From IMG/VR virus record IMGVR_UViG_3300006139_000503: a stretch of DNA of 64,000 nucleotides; one strand, given 5' to 3'. The translations under genes were made by a program, and so were the position numbers. This DNA is from a virus (Duplodnaviria > Heunggongvirae > Uroviricota > Caudoviricetes). The notes below the pieces were generated by a model. It was not told where the DNA came from and made no database searches. It worked only from the letters and a program-made list of their open reading frames with translations. Below are positions 9,140-63,439 of this stretch, one piece after another (position 1 is the stretch's first letter; every line of letters starts with the position of its first letter).

Positions 9140-9164
9140 TATAAAAAAACAACACTTTACTAAT

Positions 9165-40051: not shown

Positions 40052-40454
40052 ATACCCTCCTCATATATACTTTCTTACAAGCCCAATTTACAGTCACCCC
40101 TTTTACCTATAATCCATTATACAAAAAGCTATTAAAATCAGGAGCCTCAGCAGGGTCGTCTTCTTTCTGGCAGCGCGATGCTTGTGTTTTTCGTACTGTG
40201 CAACAGTTAGTTTAACGCCCACTTTTAGGATGAACATCTTGATATAGGGAACTTTTTTCCTAGTGTCATCGCGTGTTCCTTCTCCTTTCCCCCTGCTACC
40301 TTCATGAAACTTCTACTAACAGTTAGAAGCACTGCAATGCAGTCATATCATTATAGGCAAAATACTATTCTTATGTGGTGGCCGGAACCAGCCGTTTTGC
40401 TTGCGGCAATGCTACATGCATTGTTCCTATAACCAGCCCAGACCACCATTTTAC

Positions 40455-41699: not shown

Positions 41700-43345
41700 A
41701 CAACCCAGTTTCATAATTGTTTATCCTGTGGTATGATATCAGGCAGAGTCTGATGTCCGAAGGCACTGCTGTTCCTCCTTTCAGCCGGCTTAGTCCGAGA
41801 CTGCTTCGATAGCATTCAGCCTGGCACATACGGCATATTCCGCTGACACAGAATTTTCATCCCCAGCCGTTAGCCCCAGCAAGAAAGGCTGACTGGGTGC
41901 ATGCTCATTGCGCGAGGTTTCGGTCACCGTATGCAGCACAGGATAACCCTTTTGCTTCAGGCTTCACAAATCCCGATCAGAACGGAGGTGATATCATGTT
42001 AAAGATCAACTATATGTCCACCTTGTTTGTAGGTATTGATGTAAGCTCAAAGACCAATGCTGTCTATGCGATGGACTTTGAGGAAAACAAATACATCTCA
42101 TCATCGTTTGGCAATAATCAGCCGGGTGCCGATCAGCTTGTGGATATGATTGCGGAGTGTATGCAGAAGCATCAAAACCTGGATACCCTTCTTATCGTGT
42201 TGGAATCCACTTCTGTGTACAGCGTGCATATTTCCAACTTCCTGTCGACCAGTGAGGTTCTCATGCCCTACAGACCTTACGTCTTCTGTGTAAACCCAAA
42301 GACCACTTCCAATTACCGAAAGTCCTATATCGGAATGGAGAAGACTGATCCCACAGATGCATATCTCATTGCAGACTTTGGCAGGGTAGGCCGCACGAAA
42401 AAACTGGAGCCATGGCACGGCGGGCAGTTCATAGCCCTGAAACGCCTTACAAGGCACCGTATGCACCTTTCTGAGTGCATCACCAGGGAGAAGACTTATA
42501 TGGTGTCTAATCTTTATCTGAAGTTTAGTGAGCTTCAGCTCCTTGAAGGTGATGATAAGCCTTTTGGCAGTCTCTATGGCGCCACGTCCTCAGCTGTCCT
42601 GACAGAATTTCTGTCACCACAGGAGATCATTGATATGCCGGAAGAGGATCTGCTTGCTTTTCTTGCGGAAAAGAGCAGGAACCGCATCTCTGACATATCC
42701 AAAACTTCCGAACTTCTGCGGAAGGCAGCCAGGGATTCCTACCGGTTAGACAAGTGCATGTACGAACCACTGAACATATCACTGGCAAGCTCGTTTAACT
42801 GCATCCATGCCTATCAGAAAGAAATCAGGCTGATAGAGCAGGCGATTGGGAAATGCATCAACGGAATGAACCCTAATGCCCTGATCATCCTCAGGTCCAT
42901 ACCTGGAATAGGTCCAGTATGGGCATCCGGGATCCTGTCAGAAATAGGCGATATAACAGCATTTCATTCGTCCGATGCCCTTGCCAAATATGCCGGGCTT
43001 TACTGGCCTAAAGGTGATTCCGGAGATTTCACTTCTGAGGACAACAACATGTCGAAAGCCGGAAATCCCTATCTTCGCTACTATCTTGGCGAAGCGGCAA
43101 ACAGCGTCAGGAAGCACATCCCTCAATATGCTGATTTTTATGCCAGAAAATATGCTGAGGTAACCAGACATCAGCACAAAAGAGCACTCGCGCTTACATC
43201 TCGTAAATTTGTACGACTCGTTTTTGGATTGCTGGTCAAAAACCAACTGTACACCGGCGAAAAGCTGGACACCGAATATAATATCGAGTCGAACTGACCT
43301 TCGGTTTTTCGTAAAATATACCGAAGGTCTGTTAAAGTTACCCTT
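41700..43345 (+). mobile_element. IS110-family insertion sequence (boundaries approximate)
   Basis: DEDD-type IS110 transposase gene with a long (~300-480 bp) non-coding 5' region and a 3'-terminal palindrome gaccttcggt...accgaaggtc (43306-43340). The family lacks terminal IRs, so I cannot place the ends from sequence alone. Confidence 0.5.
41996..43297 (+). CDS. IS110-family transposase (DEDD RuvC-like N-domain + C-terminal Tnp domain)
   Basis: The N-terminus MLKINYMSTLFVGIDVSSKTNAVYAMD is typical of IS110 (DEDD_Tnp_IS110). The C-terminal region contains the conserved GIGPVWASGILSEIGDI helix-hairpin-helix-like motif. GGAGGTGAT lies 5 nt before the ATG. Confidence 0.8.
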   Translation: MLKINYMSTLFVGIDVSSKTNAVYAMDFEENKYISSSFGNNQPGADQLVDMIAECMQKHQNLDTLLIVLESTSVYSVHISNFLSTSEVLMPYRPYVFCVNPKTTSNYRKSYIGMEKTDPTDAYLIADFGRVGRTKKLEPWHGGQFIALKRLTRHRMHLSECITREKTYMVSNLYLKFSELQLLEGDDKPFGSLYGATSSAVLTEFLSPQEIIDMPEEDLLAFLAEKSRNRISDISKTSELLRKAARDSYRLDKCMYEPLNISLASSFNCIHAYQKEIRLIEQAIGKCINGMNPNALIILRSIPGIGPVWASGILSEIGDITAFHSSDALAKYAGLYWPKGDSGDFTSEDNNMSKAGNPYLRYYLGEAANSVRKHIPQYADFYARKYAEVTRHQHKRALALTSRKFVRLVFGLLVKNQLYTGEKLDTEYNIESN

Positions 43346-43403
43346 TTTTCTGAAAAACATATCAAAATCTTTTTCAAAAAGTTCTTGACATATCACCAGA
43401 ATG

Positions 43404-44513
43404 CTATGCCAAGTAGTGGATATTTTTGTCCATCTTTCGGGTAATAACCAAGCACTCCGGCTCACTTGCTTTTGCTGCTTTGCAAGACTCTACATACGAC
43501 TCTATATAGTCGAGGCTGAACTTGTCAGGCGTTATTACATGGGCACACATGGAAGTGTCAAACACCGCGTCCGTCGGTGTAAACTCGACATCAACGAAAT
43601 TGCCCTCGTTATTATCGTATAAGTATACGGTCTCCCTTTCCTCCCCTCCGAACATATCCAGCTGTACTCTCCTATTCACCGCTGTGAATCCATTCGCGTA
43701 TTTCAAAGTGACTATATAGTACACCTTCTCAATATTGATGATATTTAAGTCTTTAATCGCCTCGCCAAATGCAGAACCCATCTGCAACTCAAATGCAATT
43801 GCGCGCAGGCAGTCGTAGTTCAGGTTTACCTTTCCGGAAAAAGAAACCACGTCTTCAATCTCCCCGTGGTATTTCTCCGGCAGTTTATCTCTCAGGTACT
43901 GTCTGACTTCCTGCACCGATGGATACTCAAACCGGAAATGGTAATGGAACCGCCCCGGCCTGTTTACCAAGTAATCACTCAAGTTCGCAAGCTCATTGCA
44001 TGTAACTACAAACAGCTTCTTCCCAACAGAAATCCCGTCAAACAAGGACAGCATCTGTGTTTGTGGGGATGCGTCCCCATCCTTTGCTCTTACAGTGCCG
44101 AAGGTCTTATCAAATTCGTCAAACAAAATCATTACCTCCTGTTCGATATCTTCGATATAAGAGGCAATTCCTGGATAATATGTGTCCACTATGATAACTG
44201 GCATACCGCCTTTAATAGAAGTTACCGCAAGCATCTTTGCAAGCAGCGACTTGCCGATACCTTTATCACCGCTCAAAATCACTCCCAGGCTACGGTTCAT
44301 TGTAGTAAATGCTTTCATAACTTTCTGTACCTTTTCGTCATGTACGCCATACACTTTCGGCTCTTTAATTTCCATTTCTGGACTCTTCACAAGGGAAAAT
44401 CCCCTGTTTTCGCTGAACCTCACTACATAGAACTGTGCAGGCAGCTGTTCATATACCTGCAGTGAATCATCAAAAATGTCATACGTATTGTTTCCCTGGC
44501 TAATTGCTTTCAT
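43404..44513 (-). CDS. Classic-clade AAA+ ATPase
   Basis: Walker A GDKGIGKSLLAKMLA, Walker B ILFDEFDK, sensor-1 VTCN, and the NRPGRFHYHF arginine-finger/sensor-2 region. 369 aa. Last gene of the putative RT operon. Confidence 0.7.
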   Translation of the reverse strand: MKAISQGNNTYDIFDDSLQVYEQLPAQFYVVRFSENRGFSLVKSPEMEIKEPKVYGVHDEKVQKVMKAFTTMNRSLGVILSGDKGIGKSLLAKMLAVTSIKGGMPVIIVDTYYPGIASYIEDIEQEVMILFDEFDKTFGTVRAKDGDASPQTQMLSLFDGISVGKKLFVVTCNELANLSDYLVNRPGRFHYHFRFEYPSVQEVRQYLRDKLPEKYHGEIEDVVSFSGKVNLNYDCLRAIAFELQMGSAFGEAIKDLNIINIEKVYYIVTLKYANGFTAVNRRVQLDMFGGEERETVYLYDNNEGNFVDVEFTPTDAVFDTSMCAHVITPDKFSLDYIESYVESCKAAKASEPECLVITRKMDKNIHYLA

Positions 44514-44777
44514 AATCTTCTCCTTGTTATATTGTTATTTAATTGTGACTATTCCCACAATCCGTAAGCTACTTTCATTGTGGAAGGAAAGTAGCTTATG
44601 CGAAAACCTGCCACTCATTTATGAGTGCAAGCTAGCTTTGCGAACCTCTCACTAACAGTCGAGAGTTATTACAATTCCTATATGGCTTTATCGCCACATA
44701 CACATTTGTACTGGAAAGGTAATTCATTTACATTGTGGGGTTTAATCAAGATGCGACATGCGCATTTAATATCAAAC

Positions 44778-45320
44778 CTATTGGTCTACGACTTTAATTG
44801 ATTCCAAAAATTTATCAACCTCGTCCGAATCAACATACATATCACCTGCTGGCATCAGCATATCTTTTGATATCTTCCACTCGGAATCATGTCCGAGATA
44901 CTCGTCATACTTAATTTCCGTAATTTCAAATTCAAGACCTCCTATACCGCTCTGCATTTCTTTAGTAAAACGGAAACGGCACTCAATCCATCCGTTCTCA
45001 GATACCCCAAACTCCTCTTCCATATCCTCCCAGTCGCGGATTTTTACCCAGTCACCAACCTGTGGGGCAAAGCTGTTTCTATATTCCCTGTCATACCCTT
45101 TCTGGATAACCTCTGTGTGCGTTGCTCCGTTTTCTACTAAAACAAGATAGCCGATATAGCCATCTTGCAAGTAACCGTTTTTGTCAACCACAATATCCCT
45201 GTCAAGGCACCCATTCTTGCTGTAATATCTCCTGCACCTATCCATTTTTGCTTTTCCCGGAACGCTTTTTGCAAAGCCTTCGGGAATTTTAATATCAGAT
45301 ATGTTCATCGTAAAACTCAT
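44778..45320 (-). CDS. Hypothetical protein in RT operon
   Basis: Start chosen at the internal ATG (MSFTMNI) with AAAGGGAGG 8 nt upstream. The track ORF extends to 45359. I recognise no domain. Confidence 0.4.
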   Translation of the reverse strand: MSFTMNISDIKIPEGFAKSVPGKAKMDRCRRYYSKNGCLDRDIVVDKNGYLQDGYIGYLVLVENGATHTEVIQKGYDREYRNSFAPQVGDWVKIRDWEDMEEEFGVSENGWIECRFRFTKEMQSGIGGLEFEITEIKYDEYLGHDSEWKISKDMLMPAGDMYVDSDEVDKFLESIKVVDQ

Positions 45321-45686
45321 TCTAATTTCCTCCCTTTTCATTTTTTCAGAGTCCTCCAAGCAATCTAGTGGGGAATACTACTTTAGTAAAAGGCCAATCT
45401 GGAGGCGAGCAGCCTGACTTAGCTGACGTTTCTGCTGATTACTATCTTCTGCAACCTTTGTAATACAGTACCTTTCAGTCTAATATACTGCGTTTTAATC
45501 AAATTTCCGTGGATTTCGGCATCTGTTGCCATGACCTTACACCGGACTCGGTTCCCTAGGCTGCTTATTTCCCTTTTCATCAAATTGTTACATCCCGCTG
45601 ACAGCTAGGAGCATATCCAAAAACAGATATAATATCATTGCAGCGGAAGACTCTTCGATTCTTTAAAGTTCTTATATATCGCGAAC

Positions 45687-46826
45687 TCAGATTTTCAAAT
45701 CTGTCTTAATTAACGCCACGATATCAACGCCAAATTTATCGCCAACATGTTTTACCATAGCGTCAATGGTTTCTTTCTCAATCATCCTATAGTAGTTCCT
45801 GTATCCTTCCATTACCCGGATGTCCGTCTTATCCCAGGGCGTCCCATTCCTCCTGTCCATGACATACGATGCCAGCATCGCCTGGAACTGCCGTTTCTTT
45901 TTGTATCCCACGGTAATCTGATTGTCTTTGTTCAGCATCACTCCAAGGTTCCAGTTTGAACCCGCGGATGACCCATACCGGGTCTTCCCTGGATTAATGG
46001 TAAACGGCGCGCCAAAATCAGCGAGCGTCGATATTATCAGTGCCTCAATCTCCCGGAAGCTGAACTGGTATCTGGATGAAACTAAAAAATCATCAGCGTA
46101 CCTTGTATAAACAAACCGCTGATGATTATATTCCCTTAATGTGTTTGCCAGCTTGAAATCCACCGGAATCATTATGATGTTAGTAAGCAGCGGGGATAAT
46201 GGCGTCCCCTGCGGCAAAGCCCCATCAAGGAATGCAAGCTCCAGTGCATCGCTTAATGCGCTTCTCCCAATCCCCTGCTTCAGTACCTCCGAAAATGGGA
46301 AAACCATCCCGAGCATATGCATTACATATTCCAGAGTCGTGCTCCCGAAGAAATTGGAAAGGTCGTATTTCCCAAACCACCTGCTTGCATTCGCCTGGTG
46401 TCTCTTCACAGCATCTAAGGTGCTGCGGTGTTTCACATATGCGAATGCGGACGTATGGTACAAGGCTTTGAAATCTTCCTCGAAAATGGTTTTCAGCCGT
46501 CTCAGCGCATCCATTAATTCTGCATTCGGGGCGTCAATCTTCCTTAACCCTCCGCTCTTCTTCGGGATATGGAACGTATGGTAAAGCTCATGTCTTGGAG
46601 CGCTCTTTAATTCTGCGACGGAATCATTGAACTGGACAAGCTTTGCTATCAATTTCCTTACATCTACCGTCCCTAAAAACCTTTCACTGATTTCCGCTAT
46701 TTCGTATGTACGTGTATTGGTCATATTTGGATTAATACATGTACTTTTAACTTCTGTATTAAACAGAAACTCTTCCAATGTCATTTGATGATACATTGGC
46801 GACTGCTTAACTGTAATATAGAACAT
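45687..46826 (-). CDS. Reverse transcriptase (retron/Abi/DRT-like, stand-alone RT domain)
   Basis: RT motifs: FHIPKKSGGLRKIDAPN (motifs 1-2), QGTPLSPLLTNI (motif 4), YTRYADDFLVS (motif 5, catalytic YADD), LGVML (motif 7). 379 aa with no endonuclease or maturase extension. AAGGAAGGTG lies 5 nt upstream. Confidence 0.85.
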   Translation of the reverse strand: MFYITVKQSPMYHQMTLEEFLFNTEVKSTCINPNMTNTRTYEIAEISERFLGTVDVRKLIAKLVQFNDSVAELKSAPRHELYHTFHIPKKSGGLRKIDAPNAELMDALRRLKTIFEEDFKALYHTSAFAYVKHRSTLDAVKRHQANASRWFGKYDLSNFFGSTTLEYVMHMLGMVFPFSEVLKQGIGRSALSDALELAFLDGALPQGTPLSPLLTNIIMIPVDFKLANTLREYNHQRFVYTRYADDFLVSSRYQFSFREIEALIISTLADFGAPFTINPGKTRYGSSAGSNWNLGVMLNKDNQITVGYKKKRQFQAMLASYVMDRRNGTPWDKTDIRVMEGYRNYYRMIEKETIDAMVKHVGDKFGVDIVALIKTDLKI

Positions 46827-47172
46827 ACTGCACCTTCCTTTCTATGAAAAGCATGTAATCTCATGTATTATGATGATGTCTTTGGAACCCTTCGGTCACC
46901 CTGGGGAGGGTAGAGGCTCCGAAATGATTTGATGATAAGAAAGACTGTGGGACAGTACTTTTACCAATCAAGCTGCTTACTCATTCGCTACTGTCGGATT
47001 TTTTTTTGAACCACCTGCCAATCTTGTACCAGGATTTAAAACCCTTTTGGCAGCCGTGGGATACCTCCCTGGCCTTTCTATCAAATTGTTACTCCCACTA
47101 ACAGTAAGGAGCTACCTCTTGGAGATAAATTTCATTACATGCTTATGTGAGGGCGCTTTAAGCGCCCATCCC

Positions 47173-47844
47173 CTAAAACGCCATCAAATCAAAACCAAAT
47201 CCGTCTATTAAAACCAGCTTCTTAATACCGTTGCCTTTGACAAAATTGATGTAGTTGTTTACTCCAAGCGCACAGACCAGACGGACTGTCGTAGCCACGC
47301 CAAGCGTCACTCCGCAGGCAGACACCGGGGTTTCCTCCTTCGCTTCATCATGGGAGAACTGCATGGAGTTCAGCAGGTCTTTCTTCATCTTATAGTCTGA
47401 CCAGTCAGCGGCATAGTGCTGTGCGCTTTCCAAGAGCGTCCTGAAGTCAAAGACCGCTTTCACATATGGGCTGTCCATATGCTTTTCAACAATTTCCCTG
47501 CGCAGTTCGATGCTGTCCACACACAGGAAGATATAGCCGGACATCATTTTCCCCTGCCATCCCTCCGGCTTCATATCAATGCCATCCGCTATTTCTGGAT
47601 TGATGTCTACCAGCATATCTTTCAGCGCCTCGACTTTAAGCTTCCCTACATCATTCTGGTTAAACATCTGGTTCACGATATTGTGGTTTTCCACCTTATC
47701 GAAGTCCCACAGTGTCATCTTTGTTACACCGCAGCGCGCCAGGTTTTCAGCAATCGTGGAACCGACCGAACCACACCCCACGATATGTATCCTCGCATTG
47801 TCCTTTTCTGGCTGGAAAAACTCATATGATTTGCTTAAATCCAT
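47173..47844 (-). CDS. ThiF/MoeB/E1-like adenylyltransferase-fold protein
   Basis: Rossmann motif IHIVGCGSVGSTIAENLARCGV, downstream LWDFDKVENHNIVNQ, and a conserved Cys in PVSACGVTLGV. 223 aa (adenylation domain only). Confidence 0.65.
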   Translation of the reverse strand: MDLSKSYEFFQPEKDNARIHIVGCGSVGSTIAENLARCGVTKMTLWDFDKVENHNIVNQMFNQNDVGKLKVEALKDMLVDINPEIADGIDMKPEGWQGKMMSGYIFLCVDSIELRREIVEKHMDSPYVKAVFDFRTLLESAQHYAADWSDYKMKKDLLNSMQFSHDEAKEETPVSACGVTLGVATTVRLVCALGVNNYINFVKGNGIKKLVLIDGFGFDLMAF

Positions 47845-47926
47845 AATTTTACATCCTCCTTTATGATTCCTAAGTGAATTATTTTACACGTTTGATGGGA
47901 CGAAATTCGTTGTCTCTATTTTCCTC

Positions 47927-48792
47927 TTATGTTTCTACATATCGCCACGACCCGATGTACCCCAGCGCGGCATCGAAATAGACAGGGTTTAAGTCCTTAT
48001 ACGAACCGCCACAGTCAAACTCTGCTTTTAACCCATTCCATAAGTTAATGAAGTAACTTTTAGAACAGCTCTTATATTCCTCAGAATGTGCGCCGCCGAG
48101 CAGATGGTTGATTCTGTCTTTCGCTGCTTTATAAATCCGCTGTTGCTGTCTGGTTGTCAGAGTCATGTTGTCTACTACCTGGTTCAATTTTCCTGACTGT
48201 TCCTGCATCATAGCTGACTGTTCCTGCATCATGGATTCTACGCTTTCCATCCGCTCATCAATTTTACTTTCTATATTGCTCATTCGTTCATAAACCATTT
48301 TCATATCACAGCTCATAGCTTCAAACATAGATTCCATCGTCCCCTCAGATGGTGCAATATACCTGCCTGTTTTGCGGATTGCAGGGAGAACTTCGGATGT
48401 TACCCAGTGTTTGAAACGCCTAGCAGATTCAAGTTTGCTTCCAAATATAAGGGCATACAAGCCAGATTCGTTAATGATGGTCATTCCACGATTCGGGATT
48501 TCTAAGGGGGCGGTTTGCCCCCTTTGGATTAACTGTCTATCCTCTTCATCAACATGAACTTTTAAAGCTTTTTTGCGTCTTTATATCCCAACGCCGTCGC
48601 CACATCTTTCCCCACAAACCACGGCTCGCCATCGGTGATTACCGCCCTGATTTCCCCGAATTTTTCATTGCTAAAAAAAATCTCAATTACTTCCACTAAT
48701 TTCTCCTCTCTAAGCAATAATGTTTCCGTAGCTCGTCCATAATTGTCGTTTCTGTGCTCCAAAGGGGATGTCCACCGAATGGACTCCCTCAT
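47927..48792 (-). pseudogene. Disrupted Bro-N/ORF6C antirepressor paralog
   Basis: A Bro-N N-terminal fragment (48562..48792) and an ORF6C-type C-terminal fragment (47927..48484) are separated by stops. The intact paralogs at 49884..50588 and 51137..51859 are colinear with the two pieces. Confidence 0.5.
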
Positions 48793-48813
48793 CGCTTATA
48801 GCAGTCATTTCCC

Positions 48814-49095
48814 TCAGTCATAAACCCAGCACTCCTTCGTAAAAAGCAAGTACAAAGCAAGCACCGCGATGAGGATAGTCCCGCACATGTCGCAGGGGAT
48901 TCCGTTGTTGCCCTCGAACTCCCACACAGTGATAAGCACGCATATAAGCAATATTTCTATCGCCACAAGCCGCTGCTTTAACATCCTGAGGCGTTTACCC
49001 CGCTTGCTGCGTTTTGCATATTCTCTTCTGCCCACAAAAACCCTCCTGTTATCTCCCTGGATATCTAAGCACCCAGCCCTTGCATTATCAGCCAT
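48814..49095 (-). CDS. Small membrane protein (duplicated at 59005..59286)
   Basis: Basic N-terminus then a TM segment LVAIEILLICVLITV and a second hydrophobic stretch ILIAVLALYLLF. The start is probably the internal ATG (MADNARAG) with GGAGTGG upstream, giving an 8-nt overlap with the upstream gene. Confidence 0.45.
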   Translation of the reverse strand: MADNARAGCLDIQGDNRRVFVGRREYAKRSKRGKRLRMLKQRLVAIEILLICVLITVWEFEGNNGIPCDMCGTILIAVLALYLLFTKECWVYD

Positions 49096-49807
49096 ATGAC
49101 CACTCCGAAATCCACCTTGCCGCAGCGTCATCTACCATATACTGCGGGTTTAAATCCCGGTAGGAGCCGCAAGAGAAGTACTCGCAGAAATCCTGCCAGA
49201 GATTCCTGAAGTATATCCTGGACGACTGCCTGTACCTGTCCGAATGTGCCCCGCCGAGAAGGTGGCTTACCCGCCGCCTTGCCGCCTGTAAAAGTTCCTG
49301 CTGTTGCTTATAGTTGATTGTGGAGTAGTCGAGCATCGACTGGAATATGCTTGCACACCCAGTCAGTGCATGGACTGCATCTGCAAAACCCTCTTGCGTG
49401 AGAACCATTCCTGTTTCCTCCGGGGTGGCGGATTCTACTACTTCTTTCATCTTGAAGTATGTGTTCACCAAATCCCTCTGGACTTTCCAAGCTAAGTCGT
49501 CAGTAAAAGACTTTACTAACATGAGATAGCCGCTTTCAGTAAGGAGGGTCATATCTTCATGTGCTTTGCTTGATATGTCCATAATGTTGTGCGTCCGAAT
49601 TTCGGACGCACAAACTTTAAAGTAATCAGTCCCCTCAAGAAATCGCCTCCTATTATCGTTGAACCGCCTTCTTGCCGTCCCATCCGGCCTCTGGTGAACT
49701 CTGTCAACATCCTTAAACGTCACAACCCTGTTCCCCTGATACTCTTTAATCTGTAATTCCGTCCCCTGAATTAATGCTACATTTTCCACTGTGAATACCT
49801 CTTTCAT
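49088..49807 (-). CDS. Antirepressor paralog, ORF6N N-domain + ORF6C C-domain
   Basis: ORF6N segment VVTFKDVDRVHQRPDGTARRRFNDNRRRFLEGTDYFKV. C-terminal segment LLGGAHSDRYRQSSRIYFRNLWQDFCEYFSCGSYRDLNPQY. Confidence 0.65.
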   Translation of the reverse strand: MKEVFTVENVALIQGTELQIKEYQGNRVVTFKDVDRVHQRPDGTARRRFNDNRRRFLEGTDYFKVCASEIRTHNIMDISSKAHEDMTLLTESGYLMLVKSFTDDLAWKVQRDLVNTYFKMKEVVESATPEETGMVLTQEGFADAVHALTGCASIFQSMLDYSTINYKQQQELLQAARRRVSHLLGGAHSDRYRQSSRIYFRNLWQDFCEYFSCGSYRDLNPQYMVDDAAARWISEWSYG

Positions 49808-49883
49808 TTTATTTTTATCTTGAAAGGGGGTCGCGATTTGCGACCCCCTTTGCTACTCAGACTGAAATTAAGTTATTTCCCGA

Positions 49884-50588
49884 CTATGTTTCCACATACC
49901 GCCACGACCCGATGTACCCCAGCGCGGCATCGAAATAGACAGGGTTTAAGTCCTTATACGAACCGCCACAGTCAAACTCTGCTTTTAACCCATTCCATAA
50001 GTTAATGAAGTAACTTTTAGAACAGCTCTTATATTCCTCAGAATGTGCGCCGCCGAGCAGATGGTTGATTCTGTCTTTCGCTGCTTTATAAATCCGCTGT
50101 TGCTGTCTGGTTGTCAGAGTCATGTTGTCTACTACCTGGTTCAATTTTCCTGACTGTTCTTGCATCATAGATTCTATATTGCCCATCTGTTCATAAACCA
50201 TTTTCATATCGCAGCTCATAGCTTCAAACATAGATTCCATCGTACCCTCAGATGGTGCAATATACCTGCCTGTTTTACGGATTGCAGGGAGAACTTCGGA
50301 TGTCACCCAGTGCTTGAAACGTTTCGCGGATTCAAGTTTGCTTCCAAAAATCAGAGCGTACATTCCAGATTCGTTAATGACAATCATTTCCTGTGTTCCC
50401 CCAGGGGAGCCCTGAATCGGGGCTCCCTTTTTATCCTCTACATCAACATGTGTAGCTATGGCATTTCTCGGCTTCTCATACCCCAACGCCAACGCTACAT
50501 CCTTCCCCACAAACCACGGCTCACCATCAATAACCACCGTTCTAATTTCACCAAATTCCTGGTTGCTAAAAATCTCAATCCCTTCCAA
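49884..50588 (-). CDS. Antirepressor paralog, Bro-N + ORF6C
   Basis: Bro-N FSNQEFGEIRTVVIDGEPWFVGKDVALALGY. ORF6C-like C-terminus shared with several paralogs. Confidence 0.7.
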   Translation of the reverse strand: MEGIEIFSNQEFGEIRTVVIDGEPWFVGKDVALALGYEKPRNAIATHVDVEDKKGAPIQGSPGGTQEMIVINESGMYALIFGSKLESAKRFKHWVTSEVLPAIRKTGRYIAPSEGTMESMFEAMSCDMKMVYEQMGNIESMMQEQSGKLNQVVDNMTLTTRQQQRIYKAAKDRINHLLGGAHSEEYKSCSKSYFINLWNGLKAEFDCGGSYKDLNPVYFDAALGYIGSWRYVET

Positions 50589-50862
50589 ATCTACTTTCCC
50601 TCCTAAATTATTTTCGTTAGTTCCCAGCCAAATACCCTTTTGCCATGTTTTACCCTACGACATTTCTAAACCAAGCGGGCGGATTTCACCCTCTTGGTTT
50701 AACTCGCGAAAATTCTCACATCCCAAATTTTTTTATCTTGAAATATGTCGCAAATTTGCGACAGTTCGATTCTACAATTTCCTTTTATTCTGTACATATA
50801 TATCAAAAGCCCACCTTGCGGTGAGCTTTTAAAATCAACTTGATATTTTCAGAATTTCCCTG

Positions 50863-50891
50863 TTGACTTTCTGTGCATTTCGTGGCATACT
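50863..50891 (+). promoter_or_regulatory. Promoter TTGACT-17-CATACT of candidate sRNA (copy 1)
   Basis: TTGACT (50863-50868), a 17-nt spacer, CATACT (50886-50891). The copy at 60956-60984 is identical. Confidence 0.4.
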
Positions 50892-50897
50892 AGATAC

Positions 50898-51042
50898 GAA
50901 CAAGTTTGTTTGTGCTTGTTCATTGAATAAAGTTGTGGTTGTTGTTCATGCAACCTCATTTTTTCTTAGTGTGAGTCGGAGTGATTGCCGACTAATTAGT
51001 AATACCCGTACAGTCGAGTTGCAGCTCGGCTGTACTTTTTTT
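50898..51042 (+). ncRNA. Candidate ~145-nt sRNA (promoter + 3 hairpins + rho-independent terminator), copy 1
   Basis: Hairpins gaacaag..cttgttc and agtcgg..ccgact. Terminator gtacagtcgag-ttgcag-ctcggctgtac followed by T7. It is plus-strand, antisense to the antirepressor array, and no ORF of 60 aa or more lies inside. Confidence 0.4.
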
Positions 51043-51136
51043 CAAAAAACCATTTCAAACATCCGTTTGCACTATCCTACCACAACCCCCGTGCTATGTC
51101 AATACCAATATCGTACAAATGTTCTTAAATTCCCGA

Positions 51137-51859
51137 CTATGTTTCTACATACCGCCACGACCCAATATACCCCAGCGCAGCATCGAAATAGACATGATTC
51201 AAGTCCTTATACGACCCGCCGCACTCGAACTCTGCTTTTAGACCGTTCCATAAGTTAATGAAGTAGCTTTTAGAACGGCTTTTATATTCCTCAGAATGTG
51301 CGCCGCCGAGCAGATGGTTGATTCTATCTTTCGCTGCTTTATAAATCCGCTGTTGCTGTCTGGTTGTCAGAGTCATATTGTCTACTACCTGGTTTAATTT
51401 CCCTGACTGTTCCTGCATCATGGATTCTACGCTTTCCATCCGCTCATCAAATTTGTTCATCTGCTCATAAACCATTTTCATATCACAGCTCATGGCTTCG
51501 AACATAGATTCCATCGTGCCCTCAGATGGTGCAATATACCTGCCTGTTTTGCGGATTGCAGGGAGAACTTCGGATGTCACCCAGTGCTTGAAACGCTTCG
51601 CGGATTCAAGCCTGCTTCCAAAGATAAGGGCGTACAAACCAGATTCATTAATGATGGTCATTTCCTGTATCCCCGATGGTGTTGCCGTTTTGGCAACACC
51701 TCTATCTTCTTTATCTACTCTTTTTGAAACAGCACTTCTCGGCTCAGAATATCCCAACGCCAACGCTACATCCTTTCCTACAAGCCACGGCTCTCCATCA
51801 ATAATTACCGTCCTAATTTCACCAAACTCCTCATTACTAAAAATATTAATCTCTTCCAA
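51137..51859 (-). CDS. Antirepressor paralog, Bro-N + ORF6C
   Basis: Bro-N FSNEEFGEIRTVIIDGEPWLVGKDVALALGY. Conserved C-terminal ORF6C. Confidence 0.7.
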   Translation of the reverse strand: MEEINIFSNEEFGEIRTVIIDGEPWLVGKDVALALGYSEPRSAVSKRVDKEDRGVAKTATPSGIQEMTIINESGLYALIFGSRLESAKRFKHWVTSEVLPAIRKTGRYIAPSEGTMESMFEAMSCDMKMVYEQMNKFDERMESVESMMQEQSGKLNQVVDNMTLTTRQQQRIYKAAKDRINHLLGGAHSEEYKSRSKSYFINLWNGLKAEFECGGSYKDLNHVYFDAALGYIGSWRYVET

Positions 51860-51962
51860 ATCTACCTTTCCCCTTGTATTATTTTCATTTTTCGTTAATT
51901 CCCCAGTCTGGGCACCATGTCTGCATGACCTGCCAGTTTCTTACCCTGAATCAAATTTTCCG

Positions 51963-52100
51963 CAAATTGAACCTCTCACGAATGAAGTCGTGAGATTCCT
52001 GCTTCATCGACTTCGTAACCTCCATCTCCACAGGCGTAACTTTCCGTCGTTCCAACGGTAGATATATCTTTTTAGGCTGATGACAACCTCAATCCTTCAT
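51963..52100. repeat. ~137-bp structured repeat, copy B (see 34536-34672)
   Basis: Located just upstream (in gene orientation) of the antirepressor gene starting at 51859. Confidence 0.6.
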
Positions 52101-52175
52101 TCATAAAAAAGGCATTGCAAAACCATCAAAATAGATGATTAAGCAATACCTTCTTACTAATTCAGGAATTGTATT

Positions 52176-52754
52176 TTATTCGATTCCCTCAAAAATTTCT
52201 CCTAATGTCATCTTGATATGTGGGAATTCCCTGAGACATATTTCTATCTCTGCATTATACTCATCGTCTTCCTTGTCGTTTTGGAGCATATAGTTCTGTT
52301 CCAGTATATATTTCCCATCCTGCAAGAAATAGATTTCTAAAGACCCCTGCGGCGAAACAATCCAGTATTCTTCCACGCCCGCCTTTTCATAGATATCTTT
52401 CTTTTCCGTCCTGTCTCTCTTCGCTGTCGAATGGCTTAATGTTTCAGCGATGAACTTGGGGACGCCACTGTAGGCTCCGCCCTTTAAATGTTTCCGGTCG
52501 CACATAACCATGATATCTGGACATAAGTAATCATCATTTATATCAGGATGGTATTTAAAATCCAAGTTTTCCATAGACACAAGGCATATGCTGCTTTTTA
52601 ATCCTTGCCTAATTATAGTATAAATATTACCATTGATAATGCAATGCCGATATCCTGGAGATGGTGACATATCATATATCACTCCGTCAATTTTTTCATC
52701 TTTTCTTCGTTCAAATTCAGCTAATCCCATACTAAGCACCTCCTTATTTGCCAC
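52176..52754 (-). CDS. Uma2-family (DUF820) PD-(D/E)XK endonuclease-like protein
   Basis: Typical Uma2 pattern (GVIYDMSP...PDIMVMCD...EYWIVSP). 192 aa. Confidence 0.6.
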   Translation of the reverse strand: MANKEVLSMGLAEFERRKDEKIDGVIYDMSPSPGYRHCIINGNIYTIIRQGLKSSICLVSMENLDFKYHPDINDDYLCPDIMVMCDRKHLKGGAYSGVPKFIAETLSHSTAKRDRTEKKDIYEKAGVEEYWIVSPQGSLEIYFLQDGKYILEQNYMLQNDKEDDEYNAEIEICLREFPHIKMTLGEIFEGIE

Positions 52755-52889: not shown

Positions 52890-53402
52890 CTAATTGGTTT
52901 TCACGGCTCTCATGCCTGCCTCCGCCATCTCAGCGTTGCACAACCTGAACAATTCCCCAATGGAAACCGGCTCTTCTGGCGGCTCACACTCATAATCTGG
53001 TTCATATTCTTGGAGGGACGTATCCTCATCGGCTTCATCATCGGTTTCCTCGTCATATTCATCCTCCTCTTCTTCAAACACCCCCTCATTTTCCATCCAG
53101 CTAAGCACATATCCTTTATACCTCCTAAAATCCTCCTCGTCTAAGCCACTAAACCGGTCATATACTTCATCGTAATCGTAATAATCGTATCCCTGTGGAG
53201 CGTCCTCAAGCCATGATTTTATATCTTCCCAGTCAATCTCGTCTCTTACTCTATTGAACAGCTCACTGTTCATATAATCATCGTACATCTCTGTATCACG
53301 GACACGGGCGCACTCATCACAGTCATATTCTTCGCACAGGCTTATCAATTCCGACCATGTATTAACCACTTCAAGAAATGCTTCTCTCGTCATATACATC
53401 AC
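52890..53402 (-). CDS. Hypothetical highly acidic protein
   Basis: 170 aa with extreme D/E/Y content in the C-terminal half. Confidence 0.4.
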   Translation of the reverse strand: MMYMTREAFLEVVNTWSELISLCEEYDCDECARVRDTEMYDDYMNSELFNRVRDEIDWEDIKSWLEDAPQGYDYYDYDEVYDRFSGLDEEDFRRYKGYVLSWMENEGVFEEEEDEYDEETDDEADEDTSLQEYEPDYECEPPEEPVSIGELFRLCNAEMAEAGMRAVKTN

Positions 53403-53415
53403 CCACCCTTATATT

Positions 53416-54345
53416 TTAATGATAGTCACGCATGTACAGGCTTTCATAGAGCTGCTCGTCCAGCACATCCACATCGTCCGTACAGATGCCTGCCTTGCCT
53501 ACGTTGCTATTCTTCCCGTACCCATCTTTACGCCTGCCCTTACGTCTCCCTTTTTTCTTTTTATCTTTGGACTCCGTAAGGGCTTGCGTTTTTCCCGGCG
53601 TGCTGCCCCCGTTTTTTGGAGAACCTGCGAACGCCCCGGAATGTAAGCCATACCGCGTATCGTATCTCGATAAGTTCGCAGGGTATCCATGCCCATAGCT
53701 GACCACAGGCCTGTTTACCACCATCTCCCGCGCATTTTTAAGGAACTTTTCAATCCCGTCTTCGTCAGCTACTACTTCGATGCTTACGTCCTCCGTCTCA
53801 AAAAGCACATTGGTTTTCAGGTCATAAATCTTAACCATCCTGTCTTTCCTCTTGTTCCAAATCATGAAGATATAGAACATGTCGTCATCAAGCTGTTCAA
53901 GCAGACGGTCATACAGGGAAGTATCCACAGACGAAGGCGAAACACCCATATTCACATGGGAATGCCCCTGCATCCTGATGTTGTTGAAGATGTCGTCGTC
54001 GTGCCCCATAAGCCACATCTGGTATTTTTCCTGGTCTGTTGTGACCGTCGCGCCCGTAACTTCCTGCGGATACACCAGGATATCTGTGATATAATAGGTG
54101 TCCGGTTCGTCTCCCCGGCAAGCTATGCCATGCCATGCCACTTCCTTATCGAACTCGCGAATCAGCGTCTGCATTTTCAGCCACGCCAATTCCTTAAAAA
54201 GTACCCGTGCTTTCCTATTCAGCGTCCCCAGGGTTTTCGTAAATGTTACCTTCCCGTCCGGGAACTTGCCCCCGGACAGCGCTTCCATAAACTCTTTCTG
54301 GCACTGTTCTAAGCACTCCTGGGTTATTTTTACCATCTTACTCAT
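53416..54345 (-). CDS. JAB/MPN (JAMM) metalloprotease-domain protein
   Basis: Complete JAMM motif GHSHVNMGVSPSSVD (H-x-H-x7-S-x2-D) with an upstream Glu. The C-terminal tail is lysine/arginine-rich. The start was taken at the internal ATG (MSKMVKI) with AGAGGAGG 9 nt upstream. Confidence 0.6.
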   Translation of the reverse strand: MSKMVKITQECLEQCQKEFMEALSGGKFPDGKVTFTKTLGTLNRKARVLFKELAWLKMQTLIREFDKEVAWHGIACRGDEPDTYYITDILVYPQEVTGATVTTDQEKYQMWLMGHDDDIFNNIRMQGHSHVNMGVSPSSVDTSLYDRLLEQLDDDMFYIFMIWNKRKDRMVKIYDLKTNVLFETEDVSIEVVADEDGIEKFLKNAREMVVNRPVVSYGHGYPANLSRYDTRYGLHSGAFAGSPKNGGSTPGKTQALTESKDKKKKGRRKGRRKDGYGKNSNVGKAGICTDDVDVLDEQLYESLYMRDYH

Positions 54346-55852
54346 CGCCGCTACCTCCTCTTTTCTGCGTTTCATCTACCCCTGCTTTTGCATCCTCTTC
54401 CTGGATTCTATCTTCCTTTTTCATCCACCGAATGGCCTCTTCAGGTGTTACAATCTGTCCGTCCGGAAGTTCAATACAATGATATGGGCGGTCTCCGAAC
54501 CCGTACATGCGTTTCATGAATTCCTGCATAACTGTGCTGTCGCCAAAGTTCAGGCTCTTGCAGGAAGCAACGCCCTGCTCTAAAGCGCCAATGTAATCAC
54601 TACTCCCGATGCATTCGTTCATTGTCCGTTCGTAATCTCCCATACAGCTATACTCGTCAATGTGGGGGTTTGGCATACAGTCAGAAAATTCTTCGTTATA
54701 TTCATATCCGCTAATTGCATACACCCTCACCCCGAACTCAAATTTATACGCAGCGCAAAACTTGAGCTTCAGAGTCTGGTCGATAAAAATCGCATACATC
54801 AGCCGTTTCATATCCTGTTTCTCAATGCGGCTGTTGCAATCGTATCCACGAAGCCGATATACGTAGCTGTTCTCATTATCAACCATCGCCTTCGCCATGT
54901 CCTCGTCATAGTAAGTTACATACCCTTTCGCAACAAAGCACAATATATTCTCCGTTACATCCCTTAAAGAAAGGTTCCGGTTGCACAAGAAATATTCCAT
55001 AATTTCAGAATCGCCCTCTGTGCTCTGTGCGATTTTCGTTTCCAATCCAAGCAATTTAATTTCATGGTTGCGCTTAATTCGCAAAGTATCTGCCAACTTA
55101 TTCTGGAAACGCTCAATGTCAAGCATTAAATCTCTAATCTTATCTTTCTCTTCTTCTCGCTCTCTTTTCTCAAAGTTGGCTTCAAAACCTGCCAATGCTT
55201 TACGGATGTAATCGCTCCTGAAATCATACTGTGATGCAATTTTTGCTATGCATTTCAGATATTCATCAACGTCTTTTCCCCTAAGCGACTGGATGAGTTC
55301 CATTTCCTCCGTTTTCACGCCATCTTCCGGGTTGAAATACCACGGCATGAAAGCAAAGATTGCACACTGCAGGTAGTGCATTTTCTGCATGTTCAGAGGG
55401 TCTGTGAAAATCACAACCCTCCTTCTCTCCGGGTTCACAAAACACACACAGTAAAATGTCCTTCGGAAAAAATCCGTTACTTTTTCAAGACGTTGCCATC
55501 CCTGGTATACGTCGCAAAAAGATGACTCAATTACCTCGAAATTCGCACGGACATCTTCTTTTCTCCCTCGGAAATCATGGATTGTAACAGAGCCGTCATT
55601 AAAATACTGCGCATTATAAACAGCCCTGACCACTGCATCAGAACCTGCACCCTGGACGGAGCGTTCCTCATAGCTCGAATTTATAAACCTCACACAAACT
55701 TTTTCTCCCTCCTGCATCCTTGGTGCAACCAACGCCCTTAATGTGGACAGAAATGTGACGTCATCTGAAAAAGACTCTCCGTGAATACGCCCGAAATATG
55801 CGTCCGCCTCTGCTGTCGTTAATGCTGTTCCTCTTACAACCTGTCTAAACAT
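54338..55852 (-). CDS. Hypothetical 504-aa protein immediately upstream of the JAB gene
   Basis: Long ORF. AAGGAGG lies 8 nt upstream. I recognise no domain. It is co-transcribed with the JAB gene. Confidence 0.5.
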   Translation of the reverse strand: MFRQVVRGTALTTAEADAYFGRIHGESFSDDVTFLSTLRALVAPRMQEGEKVCVRFINSSYEERSVQGAGSDAVVRAVYNAQYFNDGSVTIHDFRGRKEDVRANFEVIESSFCDVYQGWQRLEKVTDFFRRTFYCVCFVNPERRRVVIFTDPLNMQKMHYLQCAIFAFMPWYFNPEDGVKTEEMELIQSLRGKDVDEYLKCIAKIASQYDFRSDYIRKALAGFEANFEKREREEEKDKIRDLMLDIERFQNKLADTLRIKRNHEIKLLGLETKIAQSTEGDSEIMEYFLCNRNLSLRDVTENILCFVAKGYVTYYDEDMAKAMVDNENSYVYRLRGYDCNSRIEKQDMKRLMYAIFIDQTLKLKFCAAYKFEFGVRVYAISGYEYNEEFSDCMPNPHIDEYSCMGDYERTMNECIGSSDYIGALEQGVASCKSLNFGDSTVMQEFMKRMYGFGDRPYHCIELPDGQIVTPEEAIRWMKKEDRIQEEDAKAGVDETQKRGGSGDE

Positions 55853-55910: not shown

Positions 55911-56482
55911 CTGTTCACTTTCCTCCGGCTCCTATCCCAGCCATCTCCAAATTCCATGCACTCGTATGGGTATTCTTTGTAGAATTCCTCACCGTACTGG
56001 ATGAAAAAAAAAACGGGGTGCTGCCAAGTTTCACCCACCTAAAAGAACAAGCGGGCTAGTTGCCTAACCCGCTTGCCACTGTGCTACAAGCTCCTATGCA
56101 TTCTATTATGTTCAGCATGGCTCGCTGTTCCATGCTGCCTCCAAAGAGATTTCTGTAAGTTTCCCTACAGTACAGACTATATCATCGCCCTTTTTCTCAG
56201 GGTGTCTACCACTTCGGACACCGACCGCTTGCGCCCTACTCCCTTACGGGATAGTCGTTGAACGTTCTCCTGTTCGGAGCTTCGCTGCTGATTGCCCATT
56301 GCAAAAGCGTTTAGGATTTAACCTTGCGCCATCTCGCAATTTCTTTCTACTTTCGTTACCGTCACGCTTAGATTTCTTTCATTCTTACGTTGTGGTATTG
56401 CGAGCTTTAGGGGTTCCCAGCAATTCGATAGATTTGCATGTGAAATTACTCTCACATGGGACTATTTAGCATTGCCTGCTAG

Positions 56483-62970: not shown

Positions 62971-63439
62971 ATCGTTTTCTCCTTTCGGCTATTTATTTTT
63001 ATGGATAAGCCCATAACAGAACACCCGAAACGATGCCGCGTAGCCAGATTCATAACTAAAGTCTCGGATGCTCTATATATGCTCATCAACCGCCCCGGAG
63101 GGCGGCTGTCTCAATATTCTATTGTCTTCCCTTTACTCTGTCTTTTCAGACGTCCAGAAACAATCCGGCATTTAATTCCTCGGAACATAGCCGATGTGCC
63201 CTCGGGCACTGATATCGTTGCGTTGGACGCCCTCGAAGATTTTCAAGGTGAAGTCCCTCATGGTGACGCATTCAGGCAGATGCGACCTCTTTTCACATCT
63301 AATTGGGTGTAACTCTGGGGGTTTTCACTATCCGAACCATAGGCTTACTTCCTACGCACCCAGCGACGCATCTGGTAGCAGATGTACTCTCACAGGCGGA
63401 TAACCGCTCGTGCACTGATTACTCAGAGCGATAGTATCT

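Follow-up and report, generated by a model that had tools for sequence, protein, structure and literature searches.

A retron-like reverse transcriptase locus with several related structured RNAs in a phage of Clostridia

Gene content and phage context of the locus

The stretch of DNA analysed here, hereafter the window, is 64 kb in length and encodes a retron-like reverse transcriptase (RT) among the following genes:

43404-44513 (-), AAA+ ATPase (PF00004, e-value: 1.4e-10; phrog_2376, e-value: 4.8e-103)
44778-45359 (-), hypothetical protein, 193 aa from a TTG start codon or, if the ATG at 45320 is used, 180 aa
45687-46826 (-), retron-like RT, 379 aa, with a YADD active site and a conserved N-terminal extension of ~55 aa
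47173-47844 (-), ThiF/E1-like adenylyltransferase (Pfam ThiF, e-value: 1.1e-22), directly 5′ of non-coding RNA (ncRNA) copy 1
53416-54375 (-), JAB/MPN metalloprotease with the JAMM motif E...HSHx7Sx2D (alignment consensus, invariant residues) and a variable C-terminal tail
54338-55852 (-), E2-like protein, 504 aa, with RWD/UBC fold elements and a long coiled coil

The RT is part of a block with the conserved order E2-like protein, JAB protease, ThiF/E1, ncRNA, RT and at least one further ncRNA, which recurs in phage contigs of 50-150 kb from Clostridia, where the RT amino acid identities range from 35 to 82%. The window belongs to a large gut-Clostridia phage and not to a bacterial defence island. 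The ThiF-then-RT synteny is found in the RT-seeded loci that extend far enough upstream, as well as in 77 of the 80 JAB-seeded loci, and the ThiF/E1 protein is possibly a partner of the RT. The top Foldseek matches of the AF2 model of the JAB protein are Rpn11/CSN5 (e-value: 2.7e-7), while a search for a ubiquitin-like protein to accompany the E1/JAB/E2-like cassette found none. An RNase H1 with a hybrid-binding domain adjoins the RT in the related loci L001, L005-7 and L088, and up to five ncRNAs within 21 kb can be observed in individual relatives. In the only RT-less relative (L184), a tRNA array occupies the RT position and the bulged hairpin described below is absent from that site.

The reverse transcriptase

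An earlier note on this DNA, made from the sequence alone, described the RT as a stand-alone enzyme with the motif YTRYADD and without a maturase or endonuclease domain. This description holds, the only Pfam match being RVT_1 (e-value: 2.4e-17). Each of the best 25 PADLOC matches is to a retron RT model, with RT_II-A at the top (Bitscore: 150; e-value: 2.7e-44) and with no DRT model and no clearly preferred retron type among these 25. The comparison with retron and DRT profiles that the note had proposed likewise places the retron models ahead in NCBIfam: retron_St85_RT scores best at 167 bits, below its cut-off of 235, against 38 bits for Drt2 (cut-off 390), 21 for Drt3a (200) and 82 for the group II RT model TIGR04416 (300). 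The nearest solved structures are the RTs of retrons Ec83 and Ec78 (e-values: 5e-19 and 1e-16). In the HMMER alignments with these two proteins, the NAxxH motif, NAKIH in Ec83 and NAAAH in Ec78, is replaced by AVKRH, and the VTG which both carry is replaced by NLG. Motif 4 reads QGTPLSP, unlike the motif of diversity-generating retroelement (DGR) RTs. The N-terminal extension is strongly conserved and contains conserved tyrosines, and protein priming may be considered on this basis. The C-termini show no conservation across relatives and thus give no hint that the RT itself is conjugated.

Four related ncRNA elements

Four discrete non-coding elements of 186-292 nt, all on the RT strand, share a bulged hairpin as their conserved core:

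46851-47142 (-), ncRNA copy 1, 292 nt, immediately 5′ of the RT (covariance model: 47.9 bits); a1 47141-47134, candidate branching G 47133, hairpin 1 47126-47113, bulged hairpin 47111-47092, followed 3′ by GTAACAATTTGA and a2 46859-46852
45360-45643 (-), ncRNA copy 2, 284 nt, immediately 3′ of the RT (34.4 bits); a1 45641-45637 (only 5 bp in the window), G 45636, bulged hairpin 45611-45592, a2 45364-45360
44554-44739 (-), ncRNA copy 3, subfamily B, 186 nt (35.7 bits); a1 44739-44732 (CCCACAAT), G 44731, bulged hairpin 44665-44646, long near-perfect msd-like hairpin 44598-44565, a2 44561-44554 (ATTGTGGG)
40106-40357 (-), ncRNA copy 4, 252 nt, between an SPFH gene and a 108-aa gene (41.5 bits); a1 40357-40350, G 40349, bulged hairpin 40329-40310, a2 40113-40106

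Each copy forms an intergenic leader on the coding strand, 25-55 nt 5′ of the next start codon, and copies 3 and 4 sit up to 6.5 kb downstream of the RT. A terminator-like hairpin lies between ThiF and copy 1. A copy is also present in the relative L105 at the matching place 3′ of its SPFH gene.

The earlier note had reported the motif from three non-coding regions. All three copies are genuine, but the count was incomplete, as a fourth at 40310-40329 had been overlooked. The position given for the copy 3′ of the RT (45579-45612) is exact and that for the copy 5′ of the ATPase (44644-44664) lies within 1 nt of the actual 44645-44665, while the upstream copy, placed at 47061-47093, is found 19 nt away at 47080-47112. 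The perfect hairpin noted near copy 3 is indeed present, at 44565-44598. The two long copies had furthermore been said to differ by A-to-G changes throughout plus two indels, which does not stand, since their most economical alignment contains one indel and four substitutions. On the RNA strand, these comprise a compensatory change from A-U to G-C in the upper stem, a U to C change in the loop and an altered bulged base. The A-to-G pattern represents stem covariation and not adenine mutagenesis of the DGR kind.

In the bulged hairpin, which is specific to this RT lineage, a bulge of 1 nt separates a stem of 5 bp from one of 3 bp, the latter capped by a triloop. A covariance model of the hairpin yields only four matches in the 64 kb window, all four on the RT strand (e-values: 6e-13 to 1.5e-8), with the runner-up site scoring 10.6 bits, and recovers copy 2 although it lay outside the training set. 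The conservation of the motif in relatives, which the earlier note had proposed as a check, is borne out by 168 matches in 105 related loci, all on the RT strand (127/127 in 86 loci and 41/41 in 19 further loci). Across the whole of IMG/VR, the exact motif pattern occurs in eleven stretches, every one of which adjoins the same ThiF/RT block. Double changes are observed at five of the eight hairpin pairs, in pair-count sets that were partly chosen for pairing. Hairpin loops are identical in 69% of pairs within a genome as against 29% between genomes, a homogeneity which would be compatible with a single trans-acting partner. In an RT lineage at 42% identity, the ncRNA-RT-ncRNA layout is kept, while the hairpin sequence differs.

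Retron-like architecture of the ncRNAs

The suggestion in the earlier note that the repeated hairpins belong to structured ncRNAs of the msr-msd type is supported by the ends of the elements, as all four copies are closed by a1/a2 inverted repeats with a G following a1. In the related loci, this combination accompanies 87 of 304 generic hairpins on the RT strand and one of 237 on the opposite strand. The a1/a2 helix covaries, for example ACTGTAAT/ATTACAGT, CCCACAAT/ATTGTGGG and ACCGTAAT/ATTACGGT, as well as in alignment A7. In position-based alignments of the regions up- and downstream of the RT, AAT followed by G is invariant, and it is retained in the lineage at 42% identity. In an unforced search, the longest closing helix was directly followed by a G in 49 of 97 cases. 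The unpaired G 3′ of a1 is as such a candidate branching or priming nucleotide.

The copies differ in how well their folds are preserved. The minimum free energy fold of copy 1 is closed by a1/a2 (z = -2.8), and its orthologues can be aligned, whereby both hairpins as well as a1/a2 are seen to covary. Copy 2 is the weakest in the window, with a fold no stabler than those of shuffled sequences (z = +0.43), but its orthologues in relatives are well formed (e.g. L008 11466-11748, with an 8-bp a1/a2). The copy 3 orthologues in L001, L005, L008, L009 and L086 share their ends, while their long hairpins are unrelated in sequence. Such long, near-perfect hairpins of unrelated sequence are characteristic of subfamily B (window 44598-44565; L008, L009 and L073), whereas subfamily A has a variable, branched and poorly alignable middle with no single clean msd hairpin. 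A search of Rfam, including its retron and RT-associated RNA families, gave no match at an e-value of 1 or below in positions 42000-49000, and in a search of the whole window no match reached the gathering score in the RT region. None of the four elements contains a stop-free frame, and a repeated gene of the DRT2 type is therefore unsupported. Tracts of A9-A15 occur in some upstream copies, but homopolymer tracts are not conserved between copies.

Comparison with known systems

The closest known systems are bacterial retrons, namely those of type I-A (Ec83/Ec78) and the St85 family, with which the phage locus shares a stand-alone RT, apparently from one broad lineage, a neighbouring structured ncRNA with a1/a2 inverted repeats and an unpaired G ending a1, and the division into a conserved RT-proximal stem-loop and a variable, hairpin-rich, putative template part. 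To our knowledge, retrons described to date have a single ncRNA per RT together with an effector gene. The phage system, however, has paralogous ncRNAs, four in the window and up to five per 21 kb in relatives, which flank the RT on both sides and in some cases lie kilobases away from it. It also lacks a recognizable effector gene, and its RT lacks NAxxH and VTG and scores below the NCBI family cut-off. Furthermore, it is carried near-universally, as a block, in a family of phages of 50-150 kb, and not on a bacterial defence island. Retron Ec73, on the P4-like element phiR73, is similarly located on a phage-type mobile element, but as cargo of that element it is a retron of the usual kind, with one ncRNA and an effector, whereas here a block with several ncRNAs is conserved across a phage family.

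Less similar systems share individual features. The JAMM-motif JAB, ThiF/E1 and E2/RWD-like proteins neighbouring the RT recall the E1/E2/JAB cassettes of Bil and the Cap2/Cap3 proteins of CBASS, but are phage-encoded, with the RT and ncRNAs in place of the CD-NTase and no ubiquitin-like protein found. In DRT2 and DRT9, the core likewise comprises an RT and an upstream structured ncRNA with no obvious effector, and in DRT9 the RT has an N-terminal extension and its tyrosines act as primers (PMC12483538). The phage RT nevertheless scores low against Drt2 (38 bits), its ncRNAs have neither a stop-free repeat template nor a conserved homopolymer-templating tract, and their terminal duplex and G are retron-like. 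In type VI retrons, effector translation is reported to be controlled by RT-DNA (bioRxiv 10.1101/2025.10.22.683967). An ncRNA or RT-DNA in a gene leader could similarly affect expression in the phage, although the parallel is conceptual only: the phage genes following the ncRNAs are mutually unrelated and no toxin/antitoxin pair is evident.

Alternative explanations

The earlier note had interpreted the RT, the hypothetical protein and the ATPase as an operon, which would make the locus a three-gene retron- or DRT-type defence system with the ATPase as effector. Its identification of an AAA+ ATPase at 43404-44513 (PF00004, e-value: 1.4e-10) and its observation that the 180-aa protein lacks a recognizable domain (no Pfam, PADLOC or NCBIfam match) are both sound. 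In the window, the three genes share one direction and lie close together, their order is seen again in one sub-lineage (L105 and L123), and both the window and L001 have a subfamily-B ncRNA directly 5′ of the ATPase. They are, however, not kept together: in a tblastn comparison of ~190 related loci, the ATPase is near the RT in a sub-lineage only, and is otherwise mostly missing from the RT locus or 9-10 kb away. The gene set 3′ of the RT in ~100 related loci instead varies, including RNase H, small hypothetical proteins and NAD-salvage genes. The ATPase is a member of a common and widespread phage family (phrog_2376) and has a single, marginal PADLOC match (PDC-S73; e-value: 0.0011), and in L044 it has a 95-nt leader devoid of any ncRNA. 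The only signal of the hypothetical protein is a weak ParB-like PHROG match (e-value: 3.4e-5), and its homologues are sporadic and vary in position. The hypothetical protein is a lineage-specific neighbour, and neither it nor the ATPase belongs to the RT unit. Comparative genomics has thus largely refuted the three-gene defence operon, which we regard as highly improbable. An RT of a DGR, with the long copies as template and variable repeats, or of a group II intron, has a negligible probability. Read on the plus strand, two substitutions that distinguish the long copies are A-to-G, but the shared segment extends over only 33-34 nt, neither copy is coding, the differences compensate each other within the hairpin, and motif 4 is not of the DGR type. 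Likewise, no intron RNA domain is found in the 42-49 kb region at an e-value of 1 or below, a maturase domain is lacking, and the 82 bits for TIGR04416 fall short of its cut-off of 300. Both readings, which the earlier note had set as a check, are refuted on these grounds.

Two further explanations retain the ncRNAs as functional elements. The RT may use them in the manner of DRT2/DRT9, as a scaffold with an internal template and with protein or 3′-OH priming, a1/a2 merely closing the fold. In favour of such use are the missing NAxxH and VTG motifs and the sub-threshold retron score, the N-terminal extension with its conserved tyrosines (cf. DRT9; PMC12483538), the absence of an evident separate effector gene, and the A9-A15 tracts. 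We nonetheless consider it unlikely, given the Drt2 and Drt3a scores of 38 and 21 bits against 167 for the retron model, the stop codons in all ncRNA frames, which leave no repeated gene of the DRT2 type, the lack of conservation of homopolymer tracts across copies, and a terminal duplex that covaries and is followed by a conserved unpaired G, an arrangement that corresponds to retron priming geometry. Quite improbably, the elements are cis-acting leaders of phage early transcripts, with a role in antitermination, RNase processing or translational control, and are linked to the RT by gene order only. Their consistent position on the coding strand of intergenic regions, 25-55 nt before a start codon, and the terminator-like hairpin upstream of copy 1 would fit such leaders, and phage gene order is frequently kept without functional coupling. 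Yet the elements cluster near the RT and are absent elsewhere in the window, the exact motif occurs in IMG/VR only beside this RT, the hairpin sequence varies with the lineage of the RT and has been homogenised inside individual genomes, the genes 3′ of the copies are mutually unrelated, and the RT-less relative has no elements at the RT site.

Proposed mechanism and role

The locus is, on balance, probably a phage-borne, retron-like reverse-transcription system in which one enzyme serves several templates. The data directly show its anatomy and synteny, the covariation and strand bias of the ncRNAs, and their co-occurrence with the RT. From these features, we infer that the RT binds the ncRNAs and primes cDNA synthesis from the G. 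The bulged hairpin would be recognised by the RT, the 2′-OH of the G after a1 would serve as primer, and the variable region upstream of a2 would be copied into several different small, msDNA-like RT-DNAs. The template may be trimmed by RNase H, which is phage-encoded beside the RT in some relatives.

Any role of this retron-like system is a matter of conjecture, and our low-confidence guess is a conflict function that would help the phage during infection, whether as a decoy, in counter-defence or in inter-phage competition. As the block occurs near-universally in the phage family, we prefer such a function to that of a defence island of sporadic occurrence, and this distribution lends a defence role no particular support. 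We found no published description of one enzyme with many templates on a phage. The occurrence of at least four related retron-template-like RNAs around one phage RT apparently represents a previously undescribed arrangement.

Genes at the locus and nature of the reverse transcriptase

The three open reading frames described in the earlier note are all present, in the order reverse transcriptase (RT), hypothetical protein and AAA ATPase.

Genes at the RT locus
45687-46826 (-), RT, 379 aa, with a YTRYADD motif and RVT_1 as the only Pfam domain
44778-45359, 180-193 aa protein, follows the RT
43404-44513, AAA ATPase (PF00004, 1.4e-10; phrog_2376, 4.8e-103)

When the RT was compared with retron and DRT profiles, as the earlier note had proposed, the best matches were retron models. 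In PADLOC, retron RT models account for each of the 25 best matches, without clear preference for one type. The best NCBIfam match is retron_St85_RT (167 bits, below the cut-off of 235); the scores for group II RT and Drt2 are 82 and 38 bits. The closest solved structures are the retron Ec83 and Ec78 RTs, which carry NAxxH and VTG motifs, whereas AVKRH and NLG stand in their place in the window RT in those alignments. As the score falls below the retron_St85_RT cut-off and both motifs are replaced, the RT is retron-like but not a member by curated tests. A group II intron origin was ruled out by Pfam, Rfam and NCBIfam tests. RT residues 1-22 (46761-46826; MxYITVxQxPMYHQMTLEEFLF), which include two tyrosines, are strongly conserved down to approximately 60% overall identity, while the C-termini are variable among the RTs.

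The other two proteins had been proposed as partners in a defence operon, a proposal which the defence databases do not support: the hypothetical protein (44778-45359) has no match in Pfam, PADLOC or NCBIfam, and the ATPase, a member of the common phage ATPase family phrog_2376, gives a marginal match to PDC-S73 (E 0.0011). The gene order is likewise not that of a conserved operon, since the genes downstream of the RT vary among relatives and the order recurs only in a sub-lineage represented by loci L105 and L123.

Conserved bulged hairpin

On the coding strand the recurring motif (CTNNN-N-RCY-NNN-RGY-NNNAG) forms a hairpin with a lower stem of 5 bp, separated by a 1-nt bulge from an upper stem of 3 bp, which is capped by a triloop. 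The copies at 45579-45612 and 44645-44665, as well as the adjacent hairpin at 44565-44598, had been placed correctly to within 1 nt. The copy upstream of the RT exists but lies at 47080-47112, 19 nt from its reported position, and a fourth copy at 40310-40329 had been overlooked. The A-to-G pattern remarked upon between the two long copies is what the plus strand shows of three events: the replacement of an upper-stem A-U pair by G-C, one change in the loop and one in the bulge. A diversity-generating retroelement was rejected, as the A-to-G changes are compensatory, neither copy is coding and the repeats span just 33 nt. Differences between hairpin copies are compensatory in general, with both-sided changes at five of the eight pairs among 24 distinct copies, a set that was pre-selected for pairing and in which covariation alone counts as evidence.

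When the 64 kb window was searched with a covariance model of the hairpin plus flanking sequence, four sites and no others were recovered, each of them on the RT strand (E 6e-13 to 1.5e-8). Copy 2, which was outside the training set, is among them; the next best score is 10.6 bits. Among the related loci, 127 matches were found in 86 loci and 41 in 19 further loci, 100% of them on the RT strand. Usually one match precedes the RT start by approximately 300 nt and one to three lie just downstream of the gene, with others up to 10 kb downstream, and the maximum copy number is five in 21 kb. A search of the whole IMG/VR collection for the exact pattern of hairpin and 3′ flank yielded only 11 stretches, all of which lie beside this ThiF/RT block. 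Hairpin loops match in 69% of within-genome pairs versus 29% of between-genome pairs, as would be expected if one protein must fit all copies.

Non-coding RNA elements

Every hairpin lies within a discrete element closed by an inverted repeat (a1/a2), which is 8 bp long in three of the four window copies and just 5 bp in copy 2.

ncRNA elements in the window
47142-46851 (-), copy 1, 292 nt
45643-45360 (-), copy 2, 284 nt
44739-44554 (-), copy 3, 186 nt
40357-40106 (-), copy 4, 252 nt

The last three bases of the 5′ arm are AAT, after which comes an unpaired G; the 3′ arm opens with ATT, usually preceded by G. Across copies and genomes the arms covary freely (ACTGTAAT/ATTACAGT, CCCACAAT/ATTGTGGG, CCTATAAT/ATTATAGG, ACCGTAAT/ATTACGGT and CCTGTGAT/ATCACAGG). 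Among generic hairpins of the related loci, which were not selected on closure, such a closure with G was found for 87 of 304 on the RT strand versus 1 of 237 on the opposite strand. RNAalifold analysis of ten orthologous upstream copies yielded three covarying helices, namely a1/a2, a first hairpin and the conserved one; the central part of the RNA is unalignable among the same copies. In some genomes, though not in others, the upstream ncRNA contains A-tracts of 9-15 nt (window 47000-47008 (-), in copy 1; L009 9067-9435; L073 9676-9980).

A second subfamily (subfamily B), which includes copy 3, starts with CCCACAATGTAGATTG and contains long near-perfect hairpins differing in sequence between relatives. 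The ATPase was considered as its partner; the association holds in the window and L001 and fails in L005, L008, L009, L086 and L044, the last of which has an ATPase with a short leader that lacks an ncRNA. No Rfam family matches the RT/ncRNA region, comparison of the variable parts with the rest of the window revealed no antisense or target matches above chance, and a promoter and terminator scan remained at background level and was uninformative. A stop-free template of the DRT2 type was sought in the ncRNAs and not found.

Relatives and downstream genes

Relatives of the RT share 35-82% identity with it; they are found both on viral contigs 50-150 kb long and in MAGs of Lachnospiraceae, Oscillospiraceae and other Clostridia. 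The phage collection searched holds no close relative, the best being an unannotated faecal phage with 39% RT identity. A lineage with 42% RT identity retains the ncRNA-RT-ncRNA layout and the a1-G/a2 closure; its bulged hairpin differs in sequence. The one relative found to lack the RT, L184, has no hairpin at the RT position. Where all other relatives have the ncRNA-RT-ncRNA block, a run of sequences resembling tRNAs by eye is located in this locus (9050-9500).

Among the products of the variable genes downstream of the RT are small hypothetical proteins, NAD-salvage proteins, DNA ligase and an RNase H1 that carries a hybrid-binding domain. This RNase H1, whose hybrid-binding domain is Cauli_VI (L001 7479-8111; L005-L007; L088 7500-8114; L110 6082-6684), comes immediately after the RT and ncRNA in several relatives, and in others it shortly precedes the 504-aa gene; the RT region of the window does not contain it. 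In L001 and L002-L004, genes downstream of the RT, at 8-13 kb of these loci, encode proteins of the NAD-salvage type, namely NAMPT, a PRPP synthetase-like protein, an NMN transporter, a nicotinamidase-like isochorismatase and a CTP_transf_like/AAA_28 protein, as well as DUF6273, a radical SAM protein and a DNA ligase, a gene content which suggests an accessory or counter-defence region.

The ATPase is mostly absent from related loci or located 9-10 kb away. Between the ATPase and SPFH genes of the window lies an ORF of 466 aa on the opposite strand (41897-43297 (+)), which by eye reads like an IS110-family transposase; in L105 these two genes are approximately 1.7 kb apart.

Upstream E2-like/JAB/E1 cassette

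Phage-encoded upstream cassette in the window
47173-47844 and 52890-55852 (-), E2-like protein (504 aa), JAB/MPN protease (319 aa), acidic 170-aa protein and ThiF/E1 adenylyltransferase

In RT-seeded loci that reach far enough upstream, the conserved order before the RT is 504-aa protein, 319-aa protein and ThiF. Furthermore, when the search was seeded with the 319-aa protein, ThiF and then the RT followed in 77 of 80 loci, two of the three exceptions being truncated. The 319-aa protein is a JAB/MPN protease, with an intact JAMM motif and a predicted Rpn11-like fold; this identification came from a fold search, while its alignment, used as a profile against PDB sequences, gave no match. Two candidates for conjugation partners were rejected: the RT C-terminus as an E1 target, as the C-termini are not conserved among RTs, and the 170-aa protein as ubiquitin-like, as it is acidic and lacks such a C-terminus.

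The window cassette is interrupted by approximately 5 kb of Bro-N/ORF6C/Uma2 genes (47927-52754). Paralogous Bro-N/ORF6C-type genes form an array within 47927-52061 (-), and the C-terminal halves of two of them (47927-48484 and 49884-50588) are long and nearly identical. Two RNAs with Rfam matches are encoded elsewhere: a Group I catalytic intron (56153-56477 (-); RF00028, 82.5 bits, match over the full length of the model), approximately 300 nt upstream of the 504-aa gene, and a RAGATH-16 RNA (63313-63384 (-); RF03047, 75.1 bits; gathering score 65.6).

A GC-rich terminator-like hairpin, GGGCGCTTAAAGCGCCC (47150-47170 (-)), directly follows the ThiF stop codon, approximately 10 nt from a1 of copy 1. 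Terminator-like hairpins occur at the same position in relatives, leaving no space for a promoter before a1.

Mechanism and role

Judged by sequence, the elements resemble retron msr-msd RNAs in having a terminal a1/a2 duplex with a G in the priming position where it ends, stem-loops conserved in the 5′ part and a putative template that is variable and hairpin-rich. What the analysis demonstrates is the anatomy of the elements, the covariation of their closing helix and hairpins, their confinement to the RT strand, their co-occurrence with the RT and the synteny of the upstream block. Beyond this, we consider it probable that one joint mechanism operates, in which the RT would bind the bulged hairpin, prime on the G following a1 and reverse-transcribe the variable parts of several of the RNAs to give small DNAs, with RNase H trimming the template. 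The main rival explanation accepts the same RNAs and supposes that they are used in a non-retron way, for instance with protein priming, the mode of DRT9 (PMC12483538).

As to the role of the retron-like system, a phage-side conflict function is preferred, with low confidence, over a sporadic defence island, because nearly all members of the phage family carry the block, which lies in an early or accessory region that in relatives is rich in counter-defence-type genes. A wider proposal, which we regard as rather doubtful, is a new class of phage reverse transcription: a core block, passed on vertically in large phages of Clostridia, whose single retron-derived RT would make various small DNAs from a paralogous template array and work with the E2-like/JAB/E1 cassette for the benefit of the phage (counter-defence, exclusion of rival phages or early-gene control), rather than as a bacterial abortive-infection toxin/antitoxin.

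Neither a phage-borne retron with several ncRNAs nor an RT/E1/JAB association is described in the papers searched. Known retrons are bacterial anti-phage systems in which a single RT is combined with a single template RNA and a single effector, and they also serve genome editing as in-cell DNA factories. If the small recognition hairpin does let one RT serve a family of templates, it would be useful for multiplexed retron tools. Should a retron-type enzyme with several natural templates be confirmed, retron chemistry would have been recruited by viruses and the enzyme fixed in an abundant gut phage family, where reverse transcription may be tied to a ubiquitin-like conjugation cassette.
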